64,000 bases of DNA. Source: an uncultured Candidatus Saccharibacteria bacterium. Lineage in GTDB: Bacteria > Patescibacteriota > Minisyncoccia > JACPXH01. Shown here piece after piece: positions 2,506 through 39,794 of the stretch. The notes under the pieces were generated by a model, which saw nothing but the letters and a program-made list of their open reading frames with translations, did not search any database and was not told where the DNA came from. The number at the start of each line of letters is the position of its first letter. Position 1 is the first letter of the stretch. Both the position numbers and the translations under genes were made by a program. The DNA lies in NCBI GenBank assembly GCA_964409225.1, contig CAYPCM010000002.1:413-64412 (forward strand), written 5' to 3'.

Positions 2506-3231
2506 ATGGCAAAGCGTCAACCCGAGGCCTCTCCGCTGCGACAGCTGCTCGAACAGTTCCTTGACACCGAACAGCTTCGTTCCGTAGACCAGATCCTCAT
2601 TCCCTGGCGGCAGGCAGCCCGACGCCGACGCTATCCGTTGCCGGCCCCCAGTACGGTGAACACCGGTGCCGTGTGCGCGGCGATCACCAGAGCAACGGGG
2701 GAGCGAGCCGAGCGCATCACCGCCTTCTCGGTCAACCGCGCACTTCGGGAGACCTCTGTACTCACTTGGAAGTGCTACCGCTGGCTGAAAGGCCGCCAGG
2801 GCGACACCAATACCCTGCCCTTCTGGGATCTCGTTGACCTGCAGCTGATGGGCCTTGGCGCAGGCGCGACGGATGGTCTCGACGAGGAAACGTTCGATGC
2901 GCTGGTTGAACGCGTGCTCGAGAGCGGCGGCAATGAGATTTACGAGGCACTGATGGATTTTGCCGACCGCCTCTCGGTGCGTTTTGGCGAGCGTGCGTGG
3001 GAGGGCGGCCGTGGGGTCCTCACGATGCCGGAACTGGAGATTGACGATGCGCCCGTCGCGGACCTCGAGGCGATCCCAGCGGAACTACTGCGCAGGTACC
3101 TCGGTTTTCGCATGAGCGGCGCTCGAGATCTCGCGCTCCGGCTTGAACCAACCGTCCGCATGCTCCCCTACTACCTGCCGCTCTACGAGCAGCACGGAGA
3201 ACCGGGCAACTGGGTGGTGTTGACGGCATGA
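2506..3231 (+). CDS. hypothetical protein
   Basis: ORF with AAAGGAGGGTG SD upstream of ATG at 2506 (track ORF 2407.. trimmed). Confidence 0.5.
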   Translation: MAKRQPEASPLRQLLEQFLDTEQLRSVDQILIPWRQAARRRRYPLPAPSTVNTGAVCAAITRATGERAERITAFSVNRALRETSVLTWKCYRWLKGRQGDTNTLPFWDLVDLQLMGLGAGATDGLDEETFDALVERVLESGGNEIYEALMDFADRLSVRFGERAWEGGRGVLTMPELEIDDAPVADLEAIPAELLRRYLGFRMSGARDLALRLEPTVRMLPYYLPLYEQHGEPGNWVVLTA

Positions 3232-3424
3232 ACGGAACGGCGTCATCGTGAGCTCGCAGCGGTGGTTCGGCTCGCCACGCTCGGCCTAGATTGCGCCAGA
3301 CTCATTGCCGTCGCCTCGCCGTTTACCGGCGACTGACGACCTCAACGACCTGACGGGTTCCATCCTAACCCGTCAGGTCTTCTTATTGACGGAATTCCCG
3401 AGTACGCCTGAGAATGAAACCGAT

Positions 3425-3997
3425 ATGCTCACCCTTGCCCGAATCCGTCCCGGCGCAACGTTCCTCGAAGACGGGGATCCGTACGTTGTGCTCGAAGCCC
3501 AGCATGTACAGCTGGGTCGGGGCGGCGCGATTTTGAACACACGCATCCGGAACCTGCGGACCGGCGCCACCACCAAACGCGCCTTCAAAGGAAACGATGC
3601 GGTGGCGGAAGCTGAGGTTAAGAAACAAGCCAGCCGATTCATATACGCACACCGCGGCGAATATTGGTTTGAGAATCCGGCGAATCCCAAGGAACGATTT
3701 GCGCTTTCGGCAGGTCAATTGGGCGATAATGCGCAATGGCTGATGCCAAAACTGGAGGTTTCCGCCCTCGTATTTGAGGATCAGGTACTTGCGGTGGAAT
3801 TGCCGATTAAGGTTGACTATCGAGTCACCGATGCTCCGCCCGGCCTACGCGGCAACACTGCCCAAGGCGGCACGAAATCAGTAACTCTCGAAACCGGTGC
3901 CGTCATCCAAGCCCCTCTCTTCATCGAAGCCGGCGCAGTGGTGCGCGTGAACACTAGAACCGGTGAGTACGTCGAGCGCGTTACGACGCAACACTGA
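3425..3997 (+). CDS. efp: translation elongation factor P
   Basis: EF-P hallmark C-terminal KVDYRVTDAPPGLRGNTAQGGTKSVTLETGAVIQAPLFIE; length ~190 aa from internal Met; track ORF 3305.. has non-homologous N-extension. Confidence 0.9.
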   Translation: MLTLARIRPGATFLEDGDPYVVLEAQHVQLGRGGAILNTRIRNLRTGATTKRAFKGNDAVAEAEVKKQASRFIYAHRGEYWFENPANPKERFALSAGQLGDNAQWLMPKLEVSALVFEDQVLAVELPIKVDYRVTDAPPGLRGNTAQGGTKSVTLETGAVIQAPLFIEAGAVVRVNTRTGEYVERVTTQH

Positions 3998-4151
3998 TCT
4001 CGTTACAATGGTTCCACCGTCGCGTTACACGCTCTGTAACACTTGTGGATAAGTCGCGTCTCTGATAGTGTAAACAAAGAGACGGTTTTAAAACTGCAAA
4101 TCGGAATGCTGGTAAGGTGTTGCCGGGTCATGCATTGTCGCACAGGCGACT

Positions 4152-4808
4152 GTGCGGCGGCGTATGCCTCGACGCGTCCTCAATCGTTTCTCCACCGACT
4201 TTGCCCCATTGGTGGGGCAGATAACGCCGGAAAAAACGGCGCCGCGCGGCGCAGTAGTTATTGACGCCAATAACGATAAAAGAACACCGGCTGAACCCCA
4301 ACACGAATTCCTGGAGGCCTACGACTCTTATCTCGAAAAAATATATCGCTACATCCTTTCACGCATCCGCGTAAGGGAGGTAGCTCAAGATTTAACCAGC
4401 GACGTGTTCACTCGCGCCTGGGCATTCCTGAAAAAGGGCGCGGCGGTAAAACACTGGGGCGCGTTTCTCTATACCCTCGCCACGAATGCGTTAAGGGATT
4501 TTGGGCGCTCGCGAGGGCGCCGCGAGCGTGTATTTTCTTCCATCGCACCGCACGCGCTCGAAAATAACGACCGCGTGCGGGTTGAGCCAGATTCAGATCG
4601 CGAGCTCGACCGGCGGCGAGAGTATGAAGTTGCGCTCGTGAACCTAAACAACCTCAAACCTACATACCGACAAGTCGTATTCCTGCGGTATGTTGAGGGC
4701 TACAGAACTTGCGAAATCGCTACAATCATGAACCGTTCTAGTACGTGGGTGCGCGTGACGCTTCACCGCGCTTTAAAGCGCCTGCGGAGCGGCATTAGGC
4801 GGGTGTAA
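4152..4808 (+). CDS. RNA polymerase sigma-70 factor, ECF subfamily
   Basis: region 2 (YLEKIYRYILSRI...DVFTRAW) and region 4 HTH (YRQVVFLRYVEGYRTCEIATIMNRSSTWVRVTLHRALKRLR). Confidence 0.85.
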   Translation: MRRRMPRRVLNRFSTDFAPLVGQITPEKTAPRGAVVIDANNDKRTPAEPQHEFLEAYDSYLEKIYRYILSRIRVREVAQDLTSDVFTRAWAFLKKGAAVKHWGAFLYTLATNALRDFGRSRGRRERVFSSIAPHALENNDRVRVEPDSDRELDRRREYEVALVNLNNLKPTYRQVVFLRYVEGYRTCEIATIMNRSSTWVRVTLHRALKRLRSGIRRV

Positions 4809-4850
4809 CGCCGAGTTGCGTCGAGCGTCCTTACCTCAACGCGCCTGCTT

Positions 4851-5042
4851 ATGCTGACTCCCGATCTTGCGGCGTTTTGTGCCGAGCTTCGTCAAATCAA
4901 GCCGAGTTCCCGCTGGCAAACGTCATTGCGCAAACGTCTATGCGGGCAGCTTGAGGACGAAGCACAAACCACGCCCGTAACAACGCCGGCGCTCATTCGT
5001 CTTTTCTTATGGAAAGGTCGAACGTGGCACCTTCGCAACTGA
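4851..5042 (+). CDS. hypothetical small protein downstream of ECF sigma (possible anti-sigma; weak)
   Basis: position only; no SD. Confidence 0.2.
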   Translation: MLTPDLAAFCAELRQIKPSSRWQTSLRKRLCGQLEDEAQTTPVTTPALIRLFLWKGRTWHLRN

Positions 5043-5244
5043 ATATCTCTCGGCGTCACCCCCGTTCCCCGAGAACGAGGTTCAAGTCCCTTCTTTACGG
5101 GCAAGCACTATCAGTATACTTAGCGACAAAACGGTGCCAACATATCCTATAGTGTGAGTCCCCTTCTTCGAACAATCGAAGAAGGGGACTTGAGTTTTTA
5201 TAGTTGGGGTAAGACCGGCAGTGCTTTTGTAAACGTTGAGTATT

Positions 5245-6972
5245 TTAGGGCTCGAATCGTATCCGTTCTCCGGGTCTAAGTGGTTGCGCCTGACGCTTCT
5301 CCGGCTGCTTCGGATGAGTCGCGGCGCGACTGGCGCCCGGTGATGACTGCGCACGCTTAGACGCGGCCATGGTCTCGCCCAAGAGCTCACGGAGTCCGGC
5401 GAGATCCGGGCCGCGACGTTCACGCATCTGGACACGGTCCGGCTCAACGCCCTCGGCGCGCGGCGGCGATTTCTTAACGGCTTCGCCCAGCGAAATCGGC
5501 GCGCCAGTCGGTCTGGGCACGGCCTGCGATTCGCGCAGAGGTAAGGGCGAGGTTCTGACTGGACGTTCAACACCATCAGGGATGCGCGGCTCACGGCGGT
5601 GAGGCCTATGAAGTCGCGGCTGCGGCATGACCGACTGCACCCTTTCCGTGACCTCCTCCTCGGGATCCTCAAGCATGCCCGTCCATTTGGCGATTTTCGC
5701 CTCCACCTCGGCCCGATCAGTGGCATAGCGCTCGCGAGAGATGCGAACAATCTTATCGCGGTGCGATGTTTCTGGATGCGGATACTTATCCAAGGTCGTA
5801 GCCGAAAAGGCCCGTGAGGCCACCCCGTCAATCATAAGCTTTAAATAGATGTAGCGGTTTTTGAGATTGACCAAATCATTCATGGTAAAGTCGGGCTCAA
5901 ACTCCTTTTCGAGGAACTCGGCGTCTGTCGCACCGACCCTGAAGGAGATAAGCGTGCCTACGTTGCCGAAAACCGCCGCCGCCACCTCCTCCGGCAGCTG
6001 TTCTACGTATTGATGCGCCAAAATAAGTGCGAGACGATATTTGCGCGCCTCGGACAGGATATTCGTAAACGATTGCGTCGCAAAGTTCTGAAACTCGTCA
6101 ACATAGAGATAAAAATCTTTCCGCTCAAATTCGGGGATGTCCACCCTGCTCATCGCAGCAAGTTGCAACTTAGTAATGAGGAGCGCTCCAAGTAGTTGCG
6201 AATTGTCTTCGCCCACCCGTCCCTTTGAGAGATTCAAGATAAGAATCTTCTGCCCATCCATGACTTCCCGCATGTTGATGGCCGACTTGGTCTGGCCCAC
6301 GATGTTGCGGATAAGGGGGCTGGTGAGGAACTGGCCGACTTTGTTTTGAATCGGGTTTATTGCTTCGGCCTGAAACCGATCCGGATATTTGGAATACTCG
6401 TCCACCCAAAACGAGCGCACAATGGGATCGGAAATTTTGTCCACCACTTTCTTGCGATACTCCTTGTCAATTAGCATGCGCATAATGCCAAGAAGTGTGG
6501 AGCCAGGGTATTCAAGCAACGCAAGTATGGCATTGCGCAGCACGTATTCAAGCCGCGGCCCCCATGTATCTGCCCACAGTTTTTTGAACACGCCGATCAC
6601 GCCCGAAGCCACCAGGTGGCGGTGCTCGGGCGCGACTTTCTCGAGCACGTTAAACGCAATCGGATGGTTTAAGTCCGCCGGGTTGAGGTAAACAACGTCA
6701 TTGACACGGCTCGAAGGCACGAAATCCAACATCTCTTCGGCAAACTCGCCGTGCGGATCTACCACGCCTACGCCCTTGCCCGAAAGAATATCGGCAATCA
6801 CCATGTTTGTGATCATGGAGGTCTTGCCGGTGCCGGTCTTGCCGATCACGTACATGTGCCGGCGCCGGTCGTCGGTTTTGATGCCAAACCGCCGACGCTC
6901 GTTGCGGAAGTTTGTTTCCGCAAAGAGAGTAATTTCACTCTGACCATTCTTCAACGTGAATCCTTCAGGCAT
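5245..6972 (-). CDS. TraD/VirD4/TraG-like type IV coupling protein ATPase (HerA/FtsK-like P-loop)
   Basis: Walker A HMYVIGKTGTGKTS, Walker B FYLYVDEFQN, typical TraD-like C-terminal low-complexity tail. Confidence 0.8.
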   Translation of the reverse strand: MPEGFTLKNGQSEITLFAETNFRNERRRFGIKTDDRRRHMYVIGKTGTGKTSMITNMVIADILSGKGVGVVDPHGEFAEEMLDFVPSSRVNDVVYLNPADLNHPIAFNVLEKVAPEHRHLVASGVIGVFKKLWADTWGPRLEYVLRNAILALLEYPGSTLLGIMRMLIDKEYRKKVVDKISDPIVRSFWVDEYSKYPDRFQAEAINPIQNKVGQFLTSPLIRNIVGQTKSAINMREVMDGQKILILNLSKGRVGEDNSQLLGALLITKLQLAAMSRVDIPEFERKDFYLYVDEFQNFATQSFTNILSEARKYRLALILAHQYVEQLPEEVAAAVFGNVGTLISFRVGATDAEFLEKEFEPDFTMNDLVNLKNRYIYLKLMIDGVASRAFSATTLDKYPHPETSHRDKIVRISRERYATDRAEVEAKIAKWTGMLEDPEEEVTERVQSVMPQPRLHRPHRREPRIPDGVERPVRTSPLPLRESQAVPRPTGAPISLGEAVKKSPPRAEGVEPDRVQMRERRGPDLAGLRELLGETMAASKRAQSSPGASRAATHPKQPEKRQAQPLRPGERIRFEP

Positions 6973-11499: not shown

Positions 11500-11800
11500 C
11501 CTCCACGCCTTCACTATGACGAGGAATGGGTACGAGAGCAACCGCCGGTTATCCCCAGATGTGATACCGAGAGGAGGTGGTGCCGCCTAACGGCGAGGCG
11601 GCTCACGCCGCCTGGTGATAAACACCTAGAAGATGGCGAAAACGGTATTCACCGTTTCAGGCGGCATAAGCCGCCTGGCGACAAACGCTGACAAGGTGGA
11701 GGAAACGCTTCAGCGTTTAGGCGGCTCCGCCGCCTGGTCATAAAGACCTGGTCATAAAGACTTAGAAGATGGCGAAAACGGTATTCACCGTTTTCGCCAT
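11500..11800. repeat. intergenic direct repeats (agaagatggcgaaaacggtattcaccgtt x2; gccgcctggYgaYaaaSRc x3) including perfect 12-bp hairpin ggcgaaaacggt-attc-accgttttcgcc
   Basis: read directly; lies between secF stop and start of upstream gene. Confidence 0.5.
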
Positions 11801-30709: not shown

Positions 30710-32731
30710 TTATCGGGTAATCGCCGCGCCGGTCCGATAAAAATTACGCTCCGCCGTGTTGATGTCAAAAATCGCCTCGGCTCGCCGACCAGACGAAAAA
30801 AACTGCCCGGCCGTCATCTGAAGCCACCGCTTGCGGCCGGTTGAATCAATCTCGTAGACGCGCGTGTCGCCGACAGCGCGAATCAAGCGGCTTTCGGCGT
30901 AACGATTCAAAATATCCGCCTCAACCTCAATCACTTTTTCAAACCCGAGATGCCGATAAAACGAAAATATCTTGGCCGAAGTGATGTGCCGCCTGAAGCC
31001 GGCTTTAACGATCCACACCTTAAAGTCGCCGCGCGTCCGTATTAAAGCGCCGTCTGGAATTGTCACTATCGTTTGGGGGGCCGCCTGCGCCGGCGGTGGC
31101 GCCACCGAAACAACCGGAGGAGAGTTGGCAGAAGCAGCGTTTATGTTCACGCTGTCGGTTTTCACGACGGTCGCGCCGCTAGGACCCACAATTTCAATCG
31201 CGACGAGCCCCGAAAGCCCCGCCGGCACCGTGGCTTCAAGAGCGGTGCCTGACGTTACCACCACGCGATTTGTTTCGAGGCCGTTGAAAAACACGCGGCT
31301 GCCTGGCTGGAAGTTGCGGCCCTCAATACTAAGAATCGTCCCGGTACTGGCCTCAAAGGGCCTCACTGTAGTAATTGTCGGCAATTCAACATTGACCATC
31401 TGCGCTGTCAGCGTAAATTGCGCCTGCGGCTCTTTGTCCGTAAAACCGACTGTTTTTAACGTATCAAACGCAATCACCTGCACTGATCGCGCCGCGCTGC
31501 CAAGGTCTGGCACAATCAGAGAGCCAACTTCGTCTTTCATTCTGACGGGCTTGATGTCATACCTTCCGTCTGCTTGCTCAATCACTGCCACCACCCGGAA
31601 GAGCGATCCGGTCGGCGCCGCACCCCGAAAGGAAAGCTGCAACGCCCCGCCGCCCCCCACGAAACGGTACGTCCACGCCGCCCAGGGTGCTGTGCCCTGT
31701 GAAATCGCTGCGGTCTGGCCCGAACCAAGAGCGAAAGACGCGTTTGGCGAAATTCGCATCGCGCGCAGATCTTGCTGTTTATACGCATAACGGCCCGAAC
31801 CGGCTGAGGGGCTGTTGATAACGTTAGCGATGGCCCAGTTTTGGAACACATCGGCAAATTTTTCAGCGCTGCCAACCTGTCCGAGCGCTTCTTCTATGCT
31901 GGGAATCCCTGCTTTCGACGACGCGAGTGCGAGGCGCAAAACGCCCTCGCCGTAATGGTCGGCCAGATACTGCGCAAACATCATTACGATCCCGTAGTCC
32001 TCTGATTGATTAGCCCATTCGGTGAGCGAATCATTCGGTTTTTTCAAAAATCCCTGCACGCGCGACTGCAAGTTCGAACCCTCAAAAGGAGTGTTATAGC
32101 CCACGAGCGTCGTTGCGTATTCGCTGCGCAGTTCATTCAGCCACACCTCGTCGGCGCGGTTGAGCCGCAATTCTTTCTGATTCGAAGAAATCAAATGCTG
32201 GAATTCATGCGCGAGGAAGCTCTTCGAACGACCTATGGTTACGTGGCGCGCATTCAGGTTGATCAGTTCCCGTTCGTTCGATTCCGGATCGCGCGATCGG
32301 GAAAACAGATCATTCGGGTTAAAGTACCCGCCCGCGCTTTGGTTGAGATTTTCGAGGAGCACGTGGATGCGCGGATCTGCGTCAAGGCCGGGATTGGGCT
32401 CTGATCCGAAAAATGCGCGCTCGCGGGGCGCAATAGTGTTGTCGAACTCCTGAACCAAAGTGTTGAGCGCTTGTTGATACGTCTGCTGCTCGTTACCCGA
32501 AAGATTCATCCAGTACCGATCGTCCACCCAGAAATACACATTGTTGCCCACTGCCCGGAGCGTGGCGGTGAGGGACGTGCGCTTATCCGCATCAAAGCTC
32601 GAATCCACGCTGAAGGTCTGTGTGGCGCCGAGATCAAGAGCGAAGCCAGCGGCCGGCACCGTGAGAACAAAAAAGAGCCCGAGGGAGAGGGCCGTGCCGA
32701 TAAATACTTTCGAGCTGCGCCGTCGAAGCAT
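30710..32731 (-). CDS. secreted zinc-metallopeptidase-like protein with C-terminal IPT/TIG-like domain
   Basis: signal peptide, HExxH motif AHEFQHL, IPT-like repeat TILSIEGRNFQPGSRVFFNG...VTSGTALEATVP. Confidence 0.7.
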   Translation of the reverse strand: MLRRRSSKVFIGTALSLGLFFVLTVPAAGFALDLGATQTFSVDSSFDADKRTSLTATLRAVGNNVYFWVDDRYWMNLSGNEQQTYQQALNTLVQEFDNTIAPRERAFFGSEPNPGLDADPRIHVLLENLNQSAGGYFNPNDLFSRSRDPESNERELINLNARHVTIGRSKSFLAHEFQHLISSNQKELRLNRADEVWLNELRSEYATTLVGYNTPFEGSNLQSRVQGFLKKPNDSLTEWANQSEDYGIVMMFAQYLADHYGEGVLRLALASSKAGIPSIEEALGQVGSAEKFADVFQNWAIANVINSPSAGSGRYAYKQQDLRAMRISPNASFALGSGQTAAISQGTAPWAAWTYRFVGGGGALQLSFRGAAPTGSLFRVVAVIEQADGRYDIKPVRMKDEVGSLIVPDLGSAARSVQVIAFDTLKTVGFTDKEPQAQFTLTAQMVNVELPTITTVRPFEASTGTILSIEGRNFQPGSRVFFNGLETNRVVVTSGTALEATVPAGLSGLVAIEIVGPSGATVVKTDSVNINAASANSPPVVSVAPPPAQAAPQTIVTIPDGALIRTRGDFKVWIVKAGFRRHITSAKIFSFYRHLGFEKVIEVEADILNRYAESRLIRAVGDTRVYEIDSTGRKRWLQMTAGQFFSSGRRAEAIFDINTAERNFYRTGAAITR

Positions 32732-32777
32732 ATGTACATTCTACAAAAAATATCGCGGCTGATCAAGAAAAACAATT

Positions 32778-33957
32778 GGCGGAGACCCCGGAGGATCTCC
32801 GCCCTGTGCGGGAACACGCCCTGCCCAACTCGGCTGGACCAAATTTAGCCGAACCGGGCTGCGTTGGAGAATCGGCGGCGTTCGCCTGCAGGCGAACGCC
32901 GCCCTGCGCTGGACAACGCCTCACCTTGATATGCCGTGCGCTGCTTAACTCTAGCAAACGGCAGCATGCCGGGGAGACGATTCTGAATTTGGGATTCGGC
33001 GAGGCGCTGATCTGCGCCTCGCCCCGTGCGTAGGGAAACCTTGCGACATCCCGCGAAGCGATACTTCACGTAACAAGGCCCTGACGTGCTCCGCAAGGCG
33101 TTGCGGTGTGTATCCCAAGAAAGAACAGAATGTGATTGACGAAGCCTGTCATTGACAGGCTTCGTCCCGTGCAAAGTCCTGCTGGACTGGAGCTTACTAG
33201 GGCACACACCACTATACTGGAGTGAGCCACACGCCACAAAGCAATGGCGTGATTGTAAAACAGAGTTTTGGCAGAGAGCCCGCGGGCTCTCTGCCCCGTG
33301 CGAAAGCAAGGAGGAGCCGGCAGCGCGATACTTTGCTCGAGCGCACCACGCGATGCAGAACTCAACCCTGCCGTGGTTTGCGGGAGATGGCGGGGATTTT
33401 TACAAGAATCCCCGCCCCATGCCCAACTCTGCAAAACTGAACCCAGCTTGGCTAAGCTTTACAAGGCCTGGCCCCGCTCAGCTTGGCAAAACATATATAA
33501 CATCCACAACATAACTAGTCAAGCTCAAACAGCAAAGAAAGACGGGAGCCGAATCGGCTCCCGTCCCGTGCCCTGCGCTGCTATGTCGTACCACAGCTAG
33601 CTGGACAAAACTTCGCCCGACAGCACGGAGATGTGTGAACGATATTGATGAGTGGCGGGGACTCTTTCGAGCCCCCGCCCCGTGCAGAACTTCACTGGAG
33701 GTTGCTACAGACAGCTCTGCTGGGCTGCGCCTTGGAGTGTGAACAGCAAGGTTGTCCGTAGACAACGAAATCTCTGCTACCCAGAAAGTGTCGGCGAGGC
33801 GCAGGAGTGCGCCTCGCCCCGGGCTACGCGGTACCCCACGCGGCCTGACTCCGCCTCACCACACAAGGCGAAACCAAACCATGGTCGGAAGGCGAACTAG
33901 TGTGCCGGTACATTCACCAGAGTTGACAGGGGCGCCCGAAGGCGCCCCTGTCCCGTG
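32778..33957 (-). repeat. array A: ~10 tandem ~125-bp units, each = variable GC hairpin (10-16 bp stem; sequence differs, structure conserved) + invariant CCGTGC (plus-strand reading); on minus strand GCACGG-hairpin-U-tract terminators of small-RNA-like units
   Basis: hairpins at ~32778, 32874, 32998, 33138, 33270, 33389, 33541, 33654, 33792, 33924 each followed by CCGTGC (variants CTGTGC/CTGCGC/CCATGC/CCGGGC); internal TTGACT-N17-TATATA promoter at 33494-33522 on minus strand. Confidence 0.7.
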
Positions 33958-34042
33958 CTGGACCAAGCTGGGCCCGACTTGACCGAACCGAGCCCGACCC
34001 TAGACGACCAAGGGCTGGTTTGCCCAGGTGCGTGAAACGACA

Positions 34043-35836
34043 TCACCTCCTCCCCAAGAGTTTCAGCGTCTCCTCGACGCACTGATCGAACGTGAGCGTA
34101 CCGCGGTACGCCGGCTCGAGCCAGCCGGGCAGCGAACCGAACACAAACCGCCGGAACTGCTGCGAGATAAAGAACGTGACTCCTTTGTCCTCGGTACTGC
34201 GGATGTTGCGTCCGCGCACCTGCAACGCCTCGATCATCACCCGCCAGTTCCAGAGCTCCCAGAGCCGACGGCCGAAGCGCTTACCCTCAAAAACCGCCAT
34301 TGGGTCTTTGGGGTTGGGGAAGCCCGGCTTCAAGAAGAAAATGACCGGAGCCATCATCTTCGGCAGATCAACTCCTTCTCCGTACTGCGCCACGGTGCCC
34401 ACGAGCACCGTCCCCTCACCCTCCTTGAAGTTTGCGGCTGCCGCTTTCGCGGTCGTGCCATTGCCGTAGCTTGTCGCATGCACTCCTTCCTCGACGCAGA
34501 ACGCGAGGAACTTTTGGCGTTGCTTCTCGGAGACCACCACGACGAGCGACCGGTGGCCGGCTGCGCCGAACTTCACGCAGGCCCTCGCAATCCGCCGAAG
34601 CACCTTTGTCGGCTCGGCGCGGATGCACACCTTGGCTGCCAAGCTTGGCGTATCGATGGGCATAAAGATACGAGCGTTGTCAGCCGAAAACGTGGACGCA
34701 AGGCTGCAGACGGGAAAATCAATCCCCGTCTCGAACGCAAACACCTGCGGGTTGCCGATCGTCGCCGAATAGGCAACCGTTATGCGGCCAAAGAGTTTAC
34801 GGATGATGGGTGCGACATAGTACGCCCGGATGACGAGCTTGTGCCGAACCCTTTCGCGCTCCGTAAGCTCTTCCCGGTAGAAGGCATACGTGTAGTTGAG
34901 CGCATGACGCTCGCCGGTTGCAAGCGAGTAGCCGAGCGACCGGATGTACCGCCCAAGATCCAGCGCGAGCACCTCGAGCTTCTTCAGAGCCTCGCGGCGC
35001 TCTCGCGGATCAATTCGGCGATCCTTCACCGCCTGAGCAAGCTTCGTGCGGAGCGCATCCGGCTCAATCTTCACCAGCTCATCTAACAACTCCCGGATCT
35101 CCTCGGCCTCGAGCAGGGTCTCGGTCTTTGCCGGCTTCGCCCTAGCGATCCGAACCATCGTCTTCAAGAACTGCTCAAACGCAGCCGCCTCTCCTTCAGC
35201 ACCGATCTCCTCAAGGAGCTCGATGCATTTGCGCAGATGCCAGTCGGTAATCTCATAGCTCAAGAGGCTACGAATCGCGCGAGCGATCCGGTGCGCCTCA
35301 TCAATGATGAGCGCTGCCGGCTGGCGCCACTCTCTCGAGAACAGCTGCGTGAAGAGGTAGAAGGCGTAGGTGCAGACCACCATCGGCGCCTGCTTTGCCT
35401 CGTACTTTGCGCGTAGGTAAGGACACGATGGCGCACCCGGCTCAAACGTCTCGCCTGTCTGCTGATCCACACGAAAGCGGCAATCGATGAGGATCGAACA
35501 TGGAATCTCATCTGCCTTCAACCCCTCGCCCTCATAATAGAGACAGTCATACTCGCTTCGCCCGTAGGCGATCCGGAGATCCGGACACATGTGTCCCACT
35601 TGCTCGACGAGCGTCTTCGTCGGAGCAATGTAGAACAACGGTCCTTCATTGAGACGACGGTGCGCTCGCAACACGGTGTAGCCGATGTCGGTTTTGCCGG
35701 TGCCAGTCGGCGCTTCGAGCACGCAGGACCGGTGCTTTTCGGCAAAATCGAGACCCTGCTCTTGAACCGACCGCATATGTGGATGGATGTGCCGCGGAAA
35801 GCTTGCCTTCAAGTTCAGAGGCCGCTCTTCCTTCAT
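34043..35836 (-). CDS. DinG/XPD (Rad3)-family Fe-S helicase
   Basis: motif I VLEAPTGTGKT, four-Cys Fe-S cluster region (DCLYY..PCSILIDC..SCPY), DEAH box LIIDEAHRIA, helicase C-terminal motifs. Confidence 0.85.
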   Translation of the reverse strand: MKEERPLNLKASFPRHIHPHMRSVQEQGLDFAEKHRSCVLEAPTGTGKTDIGYTVLRAHRRLNEGPLFYIAPTKTLVEQVGHMCPDLRIAYGRSEYDCLYYEGEGLKADEIPCSILIDCRFRVDQQTGETFEPGAPSCPYLRAKYEAKQAPMVVCTYAFYLFTQLFSREWRQPAALIIDEAHRIARAIRSLLSYEITDWHLRKCIELLEEIGAEGEAAAFEQFLKTMVRIARAKPAKTETLLEAEEIRELLDELVKIEPDALRTKLAQAVKDRRIDPRERREALKKLEVLALDLGRYIRSLGYSLATGERHALNYTYAFYREELTERERVRHKLVIRAYYVAPIIRKLFGRITVAYSATIGNPQVFAFETGIDFPVCSLASTFSADNARIFMPIDTPSLAAKVCIRAEPTKVLRRIARACVKFGAAGHRSLVVVVSEKQRQKFLAFCVEEGVHATSYGNGTTAKAAAANFKEGEGTVLVGTVAQYGEGVDLPKMMAPVIFFLKPGFPNPKDPMAVFEGKRFGRRLWELWNWRVMIEALQVRGRNIRSTEDKGVTFFISQQFRRFVFGSLPGWLEPAYRGTLTFDQCVEETLKLLGRR

Positions 35837-35929
35837 CTCTCCTCCCTGCTCGCGTTACGCGAGACTGAACCAGGGTTGCGGTGATGGGAGCTTCTTCGTA
35901 GGAGCTCCCAGATGTCAAAGATCAACCGT

Positions 35930-35961
35930 TTTGATATATCAAAAACAGAAAACTTTGTCAA
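35930..35961 (-). promoter_or_regulatory. promoter for DinG-like gene: TTGACA-N17-(TGa)TATATC on minus strand, embedded in the lead of repeat unit 12
   Basis: reverse complement of 35933-35961 reads TTGACAaagttttctgtttttgaTATATC. Confidence 0.45.
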
Positions 35962-36263
35962 TGTTTCAAAAAAGAAACGGCGGGGATCCGGAAGGATCCC
36001 CGTCCCGCGCATCGCCACACTTAGCTCGACCCTGCGATAGTGAGCAACGGTGGACGGCGTAGTGGTACAAGTAGAAGGAACGATTATGGCGGCGGGGCTC
36101 ACCGCAGAAACTGGCGAGGTCGCCATTGGGCGACCTCGCCCTGTGCAACGCGACGCGATGCTTTACTCTGACCCGCCGAACGCCACCCTGCTGGACATTA
36201 CTTGACTCTGCAGAACCGCGTTGCTAAAAGAACAGACGGCAGGGAACCCTTTGGATCCCTGCC

Positions 36264-36374
36264 CCGTGCCACGCAGCGCCGAACCACGCCATAAGGTACC
36301 GGAGCTCGCCCTGAAGCGCCGCATCGAGCTCTGCTGTGGTCGGCTCTGTAAAATATCATTATCACAAGTAAAAC
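36264..36374 (-). ncRNA. example of one predicted small-RNA unit (~110-125 nt): promoter TTGACA-N15-TGtGATAAT (36368-36394) -> body with internal hairpin gagctcg..cgagctc -> GCACGG + terminator hairpin (unit 14) + UCUGUUCUUUU
   Basis: promoter, body and intrinsic terminator all readable on minus strand. Confidence 0.35.
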
Positions 36375-36899
36375 TACCTGTCAATGTTCAATGTTCAAAA
36401 AGAAGCGGCGGGGATCCTTCCGGATCCCCGCCCCGTGCCAAACTCTACAGAACTGAACTCAGCCTAGGCCGACTCCACTCTGAGCGGCACCGCTACGGCG
36501 AGTTAAGCTCCGCGGCCTTAGGGTAAATTTGCGAGAGCCCTGATGGGAGCTCCCGCCCGTGCTGGGCCTTAGACTACGCGACCCTGCTAAGCACCGGACA
36601 ACTCCGCAATGCGCGACCGCACTAAGAGGATATTCTACAGAAGCGATGATGGAACCCTCCAGTGGAGGGTTCCATCCCATGCGAGACCAGACGCTACTGC
36701 GCTGCACCAGACGGTAACTGGGTTAGCGTAGCAAGGCCGGGCCGCACCGGGCGGCTCCGAGAAAAGGCGGGGATCCAAACCGCGGATCCCCGCCCCATGC
36801 GCTGCTCTGCGCTGCTGAACTGGACCAAACGAAGACGAGTCACGCTGCGCCGAACCGAGTAGCCTAAACGCCGTAAGCCCCAAGGAAGAGAGCCTTGCC

Positions 36900-37607
36900 C
36901 TATGACGCCACCGCGGCCTTCGCGCGCCTGCCCTTCGCTGGCTTCTCGGTCGTGACCTCCGGTCCGCCCTCCCCGTCCTCGCCCTCACCCGTCTCGACGC
37001 CGGACTCGTCGGTGCTCTCGGCCGCGGCCTTCGGGGATTTGGTCCGCTCGAGCACCTCCCAGGTCTTGATGCGGAAGCGCCCGAAGTTGCCCTTGGTCCG
37101 GAAACTGCACAACCCGAAGCACCGTCCGGCCTCGACGAAGAGCTGCTTGGCCGACTTCTCGGACAGCAGATCCTCCTCGATCCGAATGACCACCTCGATC
37201 TCCCACTGGTTGAACTTGGGCCGGACGATCCGGCAGGCGGTGCCGTCCAAGTTGTCGCCCTTGCGCTTGTCCACAACCCAGCCAGAACCGTGGTTGATCG
37301 GGAAGAACTCCTGCTCGAGCGTGACGAGCGCGGGCAAGAACGTGAGCTTGCCGCTCGAGACCTTCCGCTTGTCGCGGAACGGGATGAACACGCCGCCCTC
37401 ACGCAGACACGCGAACAGGTTGTCCCCGGGGATGCCGAGCTGCCCTTCGGCGTTGAGGTAAAGTTTGCCCGCGGCGATCTCCTTGACCGGTCGGTCCTTA
37501 CGCACCGGCAACTTCACGCCGGTCCCGATGGAGTCCAGCACCTCCTCGGACATCGGGTCCATGAGCAGCGGCCTCGTACCCTCCAACACCACCCTGACTC
37601 GAATCAC
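36900..37607 (-). CDS. RAMP-superfamily protein, Cas7-like (Csm3/Cmr4/Csf2-like) with acidic C-terminal tail
   Basis: N-terminal beta-strand IRVRVVLEGTRPLLM, LPVRKDRP...LGIPGDNLFACLREGG (cf. Cas7 PV.RD..IPGSSLKGxLR), C-terminal glycine-rich loop FGLCSFRTKGNFGRFRI. Confidence 0.5.
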   Translation of the reverse strand: MIRVRVVLEGTRPLLMDPMSEEVLDSIGTGVKLPVRKDRPVKEIAAGKLYLNAEGQLGIPGDNLFACLREGGVFIPFRDKRKVSSGKLTFLPALVTLEQEFFPINHGSGWVVDKRKGDNLDGTACRIVRPKFNQWEIEVVIRIEEDLLSEKSAKQLFVEAGRCFGLCSFRTKGNFGRFRIKTWEVLERTKSPKAAAESTDESGVETGEGEDGEGGPEVTTEKPAKGRRAKAAVAS

Positions 37608-37639
37608 GGCTTACCTCCTGGGCTTTCTGCCCGTGAGAG

Positions 37640-38340
37640 AGTGAAAAGAACGAGCGGGAAGAGCATTCTCCCCGCCCTCCTCTGATATGATCCACATATC
37701 ATACGTTGATATACATGTCAAGAGCTTGTACAAGAAATAAAACGACGGGGACCCTAGAGGGTCCCCGTCCCGTGCGAAACAAGGATGGGCACTGCGGCGC
37801 GAAGCATTACAGCACGACACGTTACGAGGCTTCGCCGTGCGCTGTGCTCTACCCGTTACCGCCTTTTCGCTTCCCTCCGAAAAAGTTCTGACACCGACCC
37901 GTACATCACCCCCCCCCCCCGATCGTACCGGCCGTTCCCGCTCGGCTTGCACGAGAGCTCCGATGATCCGCTTGTGCTTGCCGTGCCTCGCAAACGCCTT
38001 GCTCTTGTTCCAGATTTTCTGGACCATCTTCCTACCCCCGGCGTCGGTAATGGGGATCGGCAGGTGTCCGTTCGCGAACGGACACCTGCCCCGTGCCGGA
38101 GATTGATGGGCCGGACCGGACCCTGCTGCGCTTGACTGGACCGCGGGCAACGTTGCTATGCCCGGCTTGGCATTAAGTTTACTAGCACATACGGCTTGCA
38201 CTGTCAAACGCAGATTTTTACTCCGTGGAATTAACGCATTTGCGAGCAGAGACGTCCACACAATCAAACAAGCCCGGACGCATGCGTCCGAGTTGTGATT
38301 TGACGTGCGCCGAGCTTGTATGATCCCCGTGCCGTCCCAG
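37640..38340 (-). repeat. array C: 3-4 further hairpin+CCGTGC units (gacggggaccct-aga-gggtccccgtc ~37744; 16-bp palindrome ggcaggtgtccgttcgcgaacggacacctgcc ~38059) with minus-strand promoter TTGACA-N17-TGcTAGTAA near 38205
   Basis: read directly. Confidence 0.5.
37690..37722 (-). promoter_or_regulatory. promoter for RAMP-like gene: TTGACA-N17-(TGa)TATGTG on minus strand, embedded in lead of repeat unit 21
   Basis: reverse complement of ~37693-37721. Confidence 0.4.
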
Positions 38341-38446
38341 TCGGACGGTGGCGCGGGGCGTTGAATGAAGACGGATGAAACGCGCCGGTGTTACATTTCC
38401 CTTCTCGACTTCGGGACGCTAAGCGTCCCTTCGCTCGAAGGATATG

Positions 38447-39295
38447 CTATCCACCAACCGTTTCGGCAATTTTTTGGATGACGGAGAGATTTCGCAGGTC
38501 GTCTTCGTCCGAGTCCTTCGGCGTTTCCAAAATCCAATTGACTTTACGCAGTTCAGAAAAACCCAAAAGCGCCCGAAAGCCAGCTTCCCCTATTTCGCCT
38601 TTGCCGATGTCGGCATGGCGATCTCTGTGCGAACCAAGCCCAAAAACAGAATCATTCGCGTGGACAATTTTGAGTCGCTCAAGCCCGAGATGCCGATCAA
38701 AATCCGCAAGCATGGCCTTGACCGCAGCGGGAGTGCGCACGTCGTAGCCGGAAGCGAACATATGACAGGTGTCGAGACAAACGCCGAAATCATGGCCGGA
38801 TTTCGCCATGATGTCGCCCACCTCCTCGAACGTATCGCCAATGATCGCACCCGTTCCGGCAGAAAATTCCAACAGCAGTCGGCTCTCTCCGTTCCAGCCC
38901 CGCATAATTTCGGCAAGCGACGCGGCCGCGTTCTTTCGCCCCTCGGTCTCCGGCCGATCCATGGCGCTGCCCAAATGCGTTACCACATACCCGATGCCAA
39001 GAACGTCTGCCCGCTCGAGCTCCTCGCGCACAATCCGAACTGAATTTTTCTGGATGCGCCGATTCGGGGATGCCAAGTTAATATAGTAAGGCGCGTGGAT
39101 GACGATATCTTCAGCCGCATATCCGAACTCGCGGCAACCCCGCCGAAACCCTTGAATCATCTCGTCGGTGAGTGCTTGCCGTCCCCCGCGCGGCGAACGG
39201 CTGAACAACTGAAAACACGCGCACCCCAAACGGTGCGCGTGTTCCGGGACATGCTGAATTCCGCCTGCGGCTGAAACGTGAACGCCGAACTTCAT
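38447..39295 (-). CDS. nfo: deoxyribonuclease IV (endonuclease IV, AP endonuclease family 2)
   Basis: MKFGVHVSAAGG..., HAPYYINLASPN, zinc-ligand residues of Nfo/xylose-isomerase-like TIM barrel; track N-extension to 39469 looks non-coding. Confidence 0.85.
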   Translation of the reverse strand: MKFGVHVSAAGGIQHVPEHAHRLGCACFQLFSRSPRGGRQALTDEMIQGFRRGCREFGYAAEDIVIHAPYYINLASPNRRIQKNSVRIVREELERADVLGIGYVVTHLGSAMDRPETEGRKNAAASLAEIMRGWNGESRLLLEFSAGTGAIIGDTFEEVGDIMAKSGHDFGVCLDTCHMFASGYDVRTPAAVKAMLADFDRHLGLERLKIVHANDSVFGLGSHRDRHADIGKGEIGEAGFRALLGFSELRKVNWILETPKDSDEDDLRNLSVIQKIAETVGG

Positions 39296-39557: not shown

Positions 39558-39794
39558 TTAAAGCGTAATCGTATGCAGGCTTAACTCCTCGGGATGATAT
39601 GCCCGCAGGATTTCCCTCGATGCTTCTTCTTGAAGCACCAGCGCGAGGACTTCGCGAATGTTGTACAATGCTTCATCAATTGTCTTCCCTTGGCTGTAGC
39701 ACCCTTCGAATAACGGGCACTCGGCAACGTAAAACCCATCCTCATCTTTCTCGATGAGGAGCGGCAGGGAGGATTTACGATACTTCGTCTTCAT
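39558..39794 (-). CDS. HicB-family antitoxin-like protein (UPF0150), no adjacent HicA
   Basis: DGFYVAECPLFEGCYSQGKTIDEALYNIREVLAL is the classic HicB N-terminal domain. Confidence 0.7.
   Translation of the reverse strand: MKTKYRKSSLPLLIEKDEDGFYVAECPLFEGCYSQGKTIDEALYNIREVLALVLQEEASREILRAYHPEELSLHTITL

Follow-up and report, generated by a model that had tools for sequence, protein, structure and literature searches.

A predicted helicase-associated VIPR system on a Patescibacteria chromosome

According to the available text of the two reports that describe them (10.64898/2026.04.26.720920, 10.64898/2026.04.26.720927), systems of the VIPR (Viral Interference Programmable Repeat) kind combine a minimal RAMP protein, Vipr, with guide RNAs (vrRNAs) in which 9-16 YNNGG repeats precede a structured 3' tail, and with an accessory gene, vap. 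Each repeat is bound by one protomer, GGY is sequestered, NN pairs with double-stranded DNA (dsDNA) such that every third target base is skipped, and competing phages are transcriptionally silenced. The characterized systems, from the Escherichia phage SUSP1 and a Pseudomonas fulva prophage, belong to type II (same reports; PDB 36pp). The accessible portions of the first report (10.64898/2026.04.26.720920) distinguish seven types, some with NNNGG, YNNNG or NNNNG repeats, and state that the vap genes of types III-V encode predicted nucleases or helicases, that about a quarter of the systems reside on prokaryotic chromosomes, that the natural targets of several types are phages, and that the characterized Viprs bind dsDNA; for types III and V, small-RNA sequencing was the only test, and none of the systems characterized there is of the helicase type. 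The supplement text of that report, as far as it is available, contains no mention of a helicase, Patescibacteria or type IV. The 64,000-nucleotide stretch of contig CAYPCM010000002.1 analyzed here (hereinafter, the window) contains a locus that very likely represents a chromosomal, helicase-associated VIPR system of a Candidate Phyla Radiation (CPR; Patescibacteria) bacterium. Systems of this kind have been known since 2026, and the locus is a new, uncharacterized member of the helicase-associated YNNNG branch, distinguished by an unusually high number of guides, 19.

All five features by which VIPR membership was assessed in silico are found at this locus, namely the RAMP fold, homology to Vipr, pentamer tracts, a structured 3' tail, and a minimal locus with a vap gene; the helicase vap, the YNNNG repeats and the chromosomal placement fit what the published description, in its available part, says of types III-V. 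The resemblance to the type II system of SUSP1 extends from the protein to the layout of the locus. Both encode a RAMP of about 200 aa with a single RRM, a thumb and a G-loop, and the two proteins are connected by profile homology and by a match to the same PHROG; the guides, about 100 nt in length, are built from tandem pentamers, in which variable bases separate a conserved pyrimidine from a conserved guanine, and have a structured 3' tail; vrRNA genes lie both upstream and downstream of the protein genes, which follow the logic of a two-gene vipr and vap operon; and neither locus contains a CRISPR array or adaptation genes. In contrast, SUSP1 has 4 vrRNAs compared with 19 here, its accessory protein is the small DNA-binding Vap1 rather than a 597-aa DinG/XPD helicase, it is a phage whereas the present locus lies on a cellular CPR chromosome, and its Vipr lacks the extra disordered acidic C-terminal tail of the protein described here.

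The Vipr protein and its predicted RNA contacts

The central gene of the locus is the following.

36900..37607, minus strand: vipr, 235 aa, GTG start; RRM core, thumb hairpin at about residues 110-132, G-loop at residues 165-177, acidic tail at residues 189-235

The initial annotation of this gene described the product as a small RAMP (Cas7-like) protein that combines an RRM core with a glycine-rich loop. This description stands, given the profile homology to SUSP1 Vipr and the core of the AlphaFold model, whereas the sequence match to the Cas7/Csm3/Cmr4 family that was also claimed does not: a search of the Pfam, NCBIfam and PADLOC profiles with the 235-aa protein yields zero matches at E-values up to 10, and membership in the Cas7, Csf2, Csm3 and Cmr4 families was rejected for want of any match to these sequence profiles. 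The identity to the type III RAMPs Csm3, Cmr4 and Cmr6 is 10-15%, with no profile match; the protein here is smaller and simpler than these, and the locus contains no other type III subunits. The sole library match is to the PHROGs family phrog_4652, of unknown function (E 6.5e-11, full length), which SUSP1 Vipr also matches, with an E-value of 7.9e-94. A phmmer search started with the single sequence detects a weak match in PDB, 36pp_D, “SUSP1 Vipr protein” (E 0.15), centered on the FGRF motif. The comparison with Cas7-family models that the annotation had proposed came out empty, and it is Vipr that is identified instead when a profile (A1) built from five homologs is used: hmmsearch aligns profile positions 4-181 with residues 4-188 of the 202-residue chain 36pp_D (E 1.8e-7), and hhalign detects similarity to SUSP1 Vipr over 160 columns with the probability of 94.9% (E 4.4e-8).

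The AlphaFold model (mean pLDDT 72, above 85 in the core) comprises a beta-alpha-beta RRM core, a beta-hairpin (residues 110-132) with a conserved arginine, and a loop (residues 165-177) that aligns with the SUSP1 G-loop in the profile alignment to 36pp_D; residues 194-235 are disordered, with a tail pLDDT below 50. A Foldseek search against PDB identifies CRISPR RAMPs only (Csm3 and type VII Cas7; E 2e-6, probability 1.0), and a fold search of BFVD identifies three viral proteins of about 200-250 aa (E 1.7e-10 to 1e-6), one of which is named RAMP superfamily protein. The structural check suggested in the annotation is favorable, the RRM core being present and the top PDB matches all being RAMPs. 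Both the sequence profiles and the model predict that the 235-aa protein is a Vipr, that is, a minimal single-RRM RAMP. The family is large, given that an exhaustive profile search identifies 4,206 cluster representatives at E-values up to 1e-3 (262 at E-values up to 1e-30); the best 150 listed of the 4,206 are mostly 180-280 aa in length.

The motifs quoted in the initial annotation and the acidic, Glu/Gly-rich tail are all found in the 235-aa translation: IRVRVVLEGTRPLLM corresponds to residues 2-16, LPVRKDRP to residues 33-40, LGIPGDNLFACLREGG to residues 57-72, and FGLCSFRTKGNFGRFRI to residues 164-180, with residues 189-235 forming the acidic, Gly-rich tail. On the AlphaFold model, the motifs fall in beta1 (residues 2-10), at the junction of the strand and helix 1 (57-74), and in the loop preceding the last strand (165-177), and homologs with 33-87% identity retain these elements. 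The motif AGGAGG is located 6 nt 5' of the GTG start. The NCBI record of the identical protein (P0001, HYW67_03330, from Candidatus Parcubacteria bacterium), labeled “hypothetical protein”, is 220 aa long and starts at Met16, which drops beta1 of the RRM. Because the N-terminal strand MIRVRVVLEGTRPLLM is conserved among the homologs and aligns with the solved relative, SUSP1 Vipr, the GTG start, giving 235 aa, is the better reading. The other open reading frames (ORFs) that overlap vipr on both strands are GC-rich shadows.

Comparison with the cryo-EM structure connects the protein to the repeats of its putative guides. Nine of the 10 SUSP1 residues named in the cryo-EM paper are found at the stated positions of the PDB sequence, and the repeats correspond such that G2 of SUSP1 is equivalent to position 5 here, Y3 to position 1, and G1 to position 4. 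The contacts to G2 and Y3 are retained: the thumb residue R138, which contacts G2, aligns with R129, W178, which stacks on G2, aligns with F169, and R179 of the Y3 pocket aligns with R170, R129 and R170 being invariant. In contrast, both residues that read G1 are replaced: H17 aligns with D17, and D177 aligns with S168, a position occupied by Ser, Gly or Ala in 10 of the 10 clade members. Position 4 is only purine-biased in the repeats of this window and unbiased in those of the relatives, so that the retention of the G2/Y3 contacts together with the loss of the G1 contacts fits a YNNNG consensus with a relaxed position 4. This mapping supports the RNA-binding part of the mechanism proposed below.

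The C-terminal tail (window positions 36900-37040, residues 189-235) is Glu/Gly-rich and terminates with the basic patch KGRRAKAAVAS. Comparable tails are present in several clade members (the proteins P0002 and P0003 and those of the related loci L002 and L003), whereas SUSP1 Vipr has none. The disordered tail might contact the helicase or mimic nucleic acid.

Predicted pentamer-repeat guide RNA arrays

The hairpin array into which the annotation placed the gene is real, but the hairpins appear to be the 3' tails of guide RNAs, the pentamer bodies of which were overlooked. The minus strand contains 19 GC-rich hairpins (RNAfold energies from -18 to -30 kcal/mol), each following the motif GCAYGG. 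Division of the sequence upstream of each hairpin into fives, counted from the hairpin, gives 285 pentamers for the 19 units. Of these, 97% have Y at position 1, 78% have G at position 5, and 65% have a purine at position 4; positions 2 and 3 are near-random. The last 15 pentamers of a unit include 9-15 YNNNG, compared with a background of 2.3 +/- 1.5 YNNNG per 75-nt segment, as estimated from all such segments of the 64-kb sequence. The 75-nt segments with at least 10 YNNNG all fall in the intergenic blocks at 32.8-34.0, 36.0-36.9 and 37.8-38.2 kb; on the plus strand, only two overlapping segments near 33.4 kb, inside an array, reach exactly 10. The repeat periodicity of the hairpin array far exceeds what chance would produce.

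The tracts consist of 11-21 pentamers, compared with the minimum of 4 repeat units by which VIPR tracts are defined, and whole units of 81-133 nt. The tail is composed of the invariant GCAYGG and a hairpin of 10-14 bp; the stems vary in sequence between copies with pairing retained, and 10 of the 11 consensus pairs show compensatory (double) changes across the 19 copies. A search of the whole window against Rfam at the gathering score identifies no family, a permissive Rfam search of 32600-38500 yields only a chance-level match to sroE, and a tRNA/tmRNA search finds none. Known RNA families, such as hammerhead-interspersed arrays and known small RNAs, were considered for the hairpin units and rejected on the Rfam result. 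As judged from the sequence, the three hairpin arrays are vrRNA arrays encoding 19 guide RNAs, listed here in minus-strand order.

38059..38175, minus strand: vrRNA unit 1, array A; 17 pentamers, GCACGG, 14-bp hairpin
37744..37844, minus strand: vrRNA unit 2, array A; 15 pentamers (14 YNNNG), 11-bp hairpin, T-run
36765..36859, minus strand: vrRNA unit 3, array B, directly 3' of the vipr stop; 13 pentamers, hairpin
36645..36761, minus strand: vrRNA unit 4, array B; 17 pentamers, hairpin
36531..36626, minus strand: vrRNA unit 5, array B; 14 pentamers, hairpin
36405..36512, minus strand: vrRNA unit 6, array B; 16 pentamers, hairpin, T-run
36238..36348, minus strand: vrRNA unit 7, array B; 17 pentamers, the 3'-most forming a clean YNNGG run, hairpin, T-run
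36113..36220, minus strand: vrRNA unit 8, array B; 16 pentamers (15 YNNNG), 12-bp hairpin
35979..36059, minus strand: vrRNA unit 9, array B; 11 pentamers, hairpin, T-run; helicase promoter-like site next
33925..34042, minus strand: vrRNA unit 10, array C, directly 3' of the helicase stop; about 14 YNNNG, 12-bp hairpin
33793..33883, minus strand: vrRNA unit 11, array C; 13/13 YNNNG, hairpin
33654..33734, minus strand: vrRNA unit 12, array C; 11 pentamers, hairpin
33540..33630, minus strand: vrRNA unit 13, array C; 13 pentamers, hairpin, T-run
33389..33491, minus strand: vrRNA unit 14, array C; 15/15 YNNNG, hairpin; TTGACT-17-TATATA just upstream
33270..33370, minus strand: vrRNA unit 15, array C; 11/15 YNNNG, internal interruption, hairpin
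33138..33246, minus strand: vrRNA unit 16, array C; 16 pentamers, 13-bp hairpin
32998..33118, minus strand: vrRNA unit 17, array C; 19 pentamers, hairpin
32874..32973, minus strand: vrRNA unit 18, array C; 14 pentamers, 13-bp hairpin
32778..32863, minus strand: vrRNA unit 19, array C, last; 12 pentamers, hairpin, T-run

Two long minus-strand ORFs, 37611-38267 (218 aa) and 32845-33309 (154 aa), sit wholly over the arrays and have no family matches; they are almost certainly not real genes, and gene callers could be misled by them. Such overlapping ORFs and the GC-richness of the region might indicate that a family of miniature repeat elements or decayed coding sequence gave rise to the pentamers and hairpins, next to which the RAMP-like ORF would lie by coincidence. 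However, the ORFs 37611..38267 and 32845..33309 match no family, the period is 5 nt rather than 3 nt, strand-specific and phased to each hairpin, the hairpins covary, and the association recurs in 6 of the 6 independent loci examined, with unrelated tails. An explanation of this kind is strongly disfavored and hardly credible.

Some sequences at the edges of the units are less regular. The 289-nt gap between units 1 and 2 has no canonical repeats; at 37909-37920 it includes 12 consecutive C of the plus strand (G12 on the minus), a run that could be an assembly artifact, a slippage-prone tract or a decayed unit. At 38332 (minus strand, about 38300-38340), poorly phased pentamers lead up to GCACGGGG, and the “hairpin” after it is degenerate and does not pair; a decayed vrRNA unit marking the upstream edge of the locus is the probable explanation.

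The predicted transcription layout includes the following elements.

37652..37721, minus strand: vipr leader; TTGACA at 37721-37716, GC hairpin and T-run at 37677-37652, then AGGAGG; function predicted from sequence
35956..35961, minus strand: helicase promoter-like site, TTGACA-17-TATATC; consensus match only
38207 (TTGACA), 36384 (TTGACA) and 33522 (TTGACT), minus strand: further promoter-like sites; consensus matches only

The five TTGACA/TTGACT sites each have an A/T-rich box about 17 nt downstream and each lie immediately after a T-run terminator or unit. This arrangement suggests five putative transcription units, namely array A; vipr with four units; three units; the helicase gene with four units; and six units. 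The annotation had assigned vipr its own TTGACA promoter inside a repeat unit; the TTGACA is found at 37721-37716, but it lies after the terminator of a unit and not inside one. The -10 box of this site is non-canonical, and a promoter scanner made no call. Between the TTGACA and the ribosome-binding site, the leader contains a terminator-like hairpin, GGGCGGGGAGA-atgc-TCTTCCCGCTC (37652-37677, minus strand), followed by the T-run, and the 5' arm of this hairpin resembles the arms of the vrRNA tails (GGCGGGGATCC). The leader hairpin could act as an attenuator or as a site of autoregulation to which Vipr binds. Another hairpin, at about 35882-35905, is located in the leader of the helicase gene.

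The helicase, related loci and comparison with type IV systems

The second protein-coding gene of the locus is located between two arrays.

34043..35836, minus strand: accessory (vap-like) superfamily 2 helicase of the DinG/XPD/Rad3 family, 597 aa

The helicase contains a GTGKT Walker A motif, a DEAH box, and four cysteines in the arch/FeS region. It matches the Pfam families Helicase_C_2, DEAD, ResIII and DEAD_2 and, in part, the NCBIfam models of DinG, Rad3 and YoaA; the best PDB match is XPD. A full-length match is to the PADLOC model PDLC01439, “typeIV_DinG (CAS-IV-A; associated)”, with an E-value of 4.9e-50, whereas the NCBIfam model TIGR03117, cas_csf4, is matched with an E-value of only 4e-5 (22 bits vs the cut-off of 400) and the curated Csf4 models of PADLOC with E-values of only 1e-6 to 5e-3. 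PDLC01439 may itself have been built from VIPR-linked helicases of such kind.

A scan of one genome per species identifies six related loci (L001-L006), all in metagenome-assembled genomes of CPR bacteria (Saccharibacteria, Andersenbacteria, Uhrbacteria and one unclassified). The helicase, with 44-50% identity, adjoins vipr in all five loci with enough flanking sequence (L001-L005), the sixth contig being too short. YNNNG tracts followed by hairpins are present in 6 of the 6, and the hairpin sequences are unrelated to those of this window. Given that the triad of the protein, the helicase and the pentamer-repeat RNAs recurs across the related CPR loci, it is a conserved system and not a local accident. 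The annotation had also pointed out that the gene is associated with a DinG helicase and with small-RNA units on its flanks, without being part of a canonical CRISPR locus; the repeat RNAs and the conserved helicase support this. A pattern-based search for relatives of vipr in the IMG/VR viral contigs found none.

Several of the related loci have features of their own. In L004 (8992-9525) and L005 (9846-10436), a second, divergent vipr paralog with 25-29% identity to the query is located between the first vipr and the helicase. In both Saccharibacteria loci, L002 and L003, vipr and the vrRNA arrays occupy opposite strands, the arrays being on the minus strand of the locus (4600-5640 and 2590-5420, respectively). 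These two genomes have near-identical guides in common (e.g., L002 5123-5182 and L003 2588-2637); within that pair, 3 of the 4 substitutions fall at repeat position 4.

Similarly to type IV-A CRISPR-Cas, the locus combines a Cas7-fold backbone protein with a DinG-family helicase, which matches the PADLOC model “typeIV_DinG”, and has no nuclease and no adaptation module; by analogy, it might also interfere by binding and transcriptional repression with the help of the helicase. It differs from type IV-A in that there is no CRISPR array, Csf1, Csf3/Cas5 or Cas6/Csf5 and no match to the Csf2 profile, the similarity of the protein being purely structural, in that pentamer-repeat guides take the place of spacer-repeat CRISPR RNAs, and in that the cas_csf4 score is far below the cut-off. 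Type IV membership fails every tested defining feature except for the loose helicase match, and the comparison is a fair analogy only. Of the resemblance to type IV loci seen in the initial annotation, the analogy, a RAMP next to a DinG-type helicase, remains valid, but the locus is to be viewed as a very likely VIPR system rather than a reduced type IV locus. The absence of csf1, csf3 and cas6 was noted correctly, the flanking ORFs being housekeeping genes or unmatched and a CRISPR array being absent.

The locus could still be regarded as a degenerate or minimal remnant of a type IV system, with Csf2 and CasDinG (Csf4) left after the loss of csf1, csf3, cas6 and the array. The hairpin units would then be unrelated terminators or repetitive extragenic palindromic (REP)-like elements. 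The full-length match of the helicase to typeIV_DinG (E 4.9e-50) and the weak match to TIGR03117 (E 4e-5) are compatible with such an origin, but no Csf2, Cas7 or RAMP profile of Pfam, NCBIfam or PADLOC is matched at E-values up to 10, cas_csf4 scores 22 bits against the cut-off of 400, and there is no CRISPR array. Moreover, the gene pair and the pentamer RNAs recur in six independent CPR loci, which argues for a functional, conserved system and not for decay, and the profile homology points to Vipr. Both the remnant and the corresponding interpretation of the hairpins are very improbable.

The neighboring genes in the window encode SecA, MurB, endonuclease IV (Nfo), HicB, superoxide dismutase and components of an ABC transporter, and the context is the cellular chromosome of a CPR bacterium. 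A search with TRF and a repeat search found no CRISPR-like array in the window. No other cas genes were found, the flanking ORFs being housekeeping or unmatched, although not every small ORF of the window was scanned with profiles. The HicB-like antitoxin gene (39558-39794) lies 2 kb from the locus, between the genes for endonuclease IV and superoxide dismutase, and has no obvious HicA partner. A 63-nt tandem repeat at 11596-11737 (2.3 copies, 76% identity) is unrelated to the VIPR locus.

Proposed mechanism, targets and implications

By homology with SUSP1, the five promoter-like sites would drive short polycistronic transcripts of vrRNAs, some of which would also include vipr or the helicase gene, and one Vipr protomer would bind each pentamer, with polymerization proceeding from the 3' tail. 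R129 of the thumb together with F169 and R170 of the G-loop would clasp the G and Y that are conserved in each repeat, and the variable bases would be exposed for gapped, non-contiguous pairing with dsDNA. The filament would stop transcription of the target, presumably a phage or another mobile element, and the helicase might then be drawn to the bound site and unwind or clear the DNA, as CasDinG does in type IV-A CRISPR.

A number of observations weigh against the assignment to VIPR or against parts of this scheme. The protein and the validated Vipr are only distantly similar, with about 23% identity, and a profile is required to detect the relationship. The repeats are YNNGG in type II but YNNNG here (YNNRG in this window), and the tail is a pseudoknot in SUSP1 but a plain 10-14 bp GC hairpin after GCAYGG in this locus; because the repeat consensus and the tail differ from those of type II, the rule of skipping one nucleotide is extrapolated to this case. 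Most of the vrRNA units have no T-run, which implies a processing step that would release the individual vrRNAs. For the helicase, the proposed role is pure analogy. As for novelty, the locus may already be among the 664 loci catalogued in bioRxiv 10.64898/2026.04.26.720920.

The target searches count on the same side. Guides decoded under seven rules (including skips of 0-3 nt and NNN rules) and compared with the window and L001-L006 yield no match above shuffled-guide controls; the perfect scores under the NN+3 and NNN+2 rules are the guide genes themselves. Five guides of the window searched against IMG/VR with exact seeds of 18-20 specified bases produce 0 matches; one 16-base seed from the window has 4 matches in viral contigs, with extension at the chance level, and one Saccharibacteria guide has 6, which represent 3 independent loci, also at the chance level. 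Two exact-seed scans of metagenomes yield 0 matches and 1 match, respectively. The latter (L007, positions 1509-1537 of the 117-kb contig Ga0182024_10000354) is the sole exact 10-repeat match under the 1-nt-skip rule, to unit 11, with 1/6 of the flanking repeats matching; it was rejected as a target and attributed to chance in view of these flanks and the lack of a clear coding frame. The scans tolerate zero mismatches and the collections are poor in CPR phages, so that the negative results are weak evidence.

The same null results enter into a different interpretation, namely that the RAMP and the repeat RNAs serve in host gene regulation or RNA-level targeting rather than in DNA-targeting defense, e.g., as a chromosomal regulator of CPR host or episymbiosis genes in which the helicase would remodel ribonucleoproteins. 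The location of the locus among housekeeping genes, and not in a prophage or an obvious defense island, and the failure of the viral scans to yield a target are compatible with this interpretation, as are the relaxed position 4 and the changed G1 contacts, which suggest that the mode of recognition may differ from that of the characterized systems. However, there is no self-target above the shuffled controls in the 64-kb window, which is the only part of the genome that the search covered, or in the related loci, the characterized Viprs bind dsDNA and the natural targets of several types are phages, the negative target scans carry little weight given the exact seeds and the scarcity of CPR phages, and XPD/DinG helicases act on DNA. 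A regulatory role is considered improbable.

A more radical departure from type II within VIPR is that the helicase-linked clade of CPR bacteria uses a code other than “NN paired, 1 skipped” and forms a bridge from VIPR to type IV; this idea is doubtful. Each protomer could present three bases, in a triplet or 3+1 code, given that YNNNG leaves three unconstrained positions and that the residues corresponding to the G1-clamp residues H17 and D177 are replaced throughout the clade, and the bridge is suggested by the helicase being closest to a type IV-A-associated model. A stop-codon test of a contiguous NNN code, in which 16 of the 19 guides are free of stops in at least one orientation compared with 15.3 under the null, is uninformative. 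If the idea is true, VIPR and type IV CRISPR-Cas would be linked by this clade as a living intermediate.

The public annotation misses the system, the protein being labeled “hypothetical” and truncated at its N-terminus. VIPR was described only in 2026 and has been proposed to represent an ancestral RAMP-based machinery of RNA-guided DNA recognition that preceded CRISPR, and only phage-borne type II systems have been dissected mechanistically. The present locus, as a very likely VIPR system, is a clean and large example from an uncharacterized branch. A construct of about 5.6 kb (32.7-38.3 kb of the window) would provide an entry to the action of a helicase on the Vipr filament, to the processing of the hairpin arrays, and to the question of whether the gapped code shifts with the repeat consensus.

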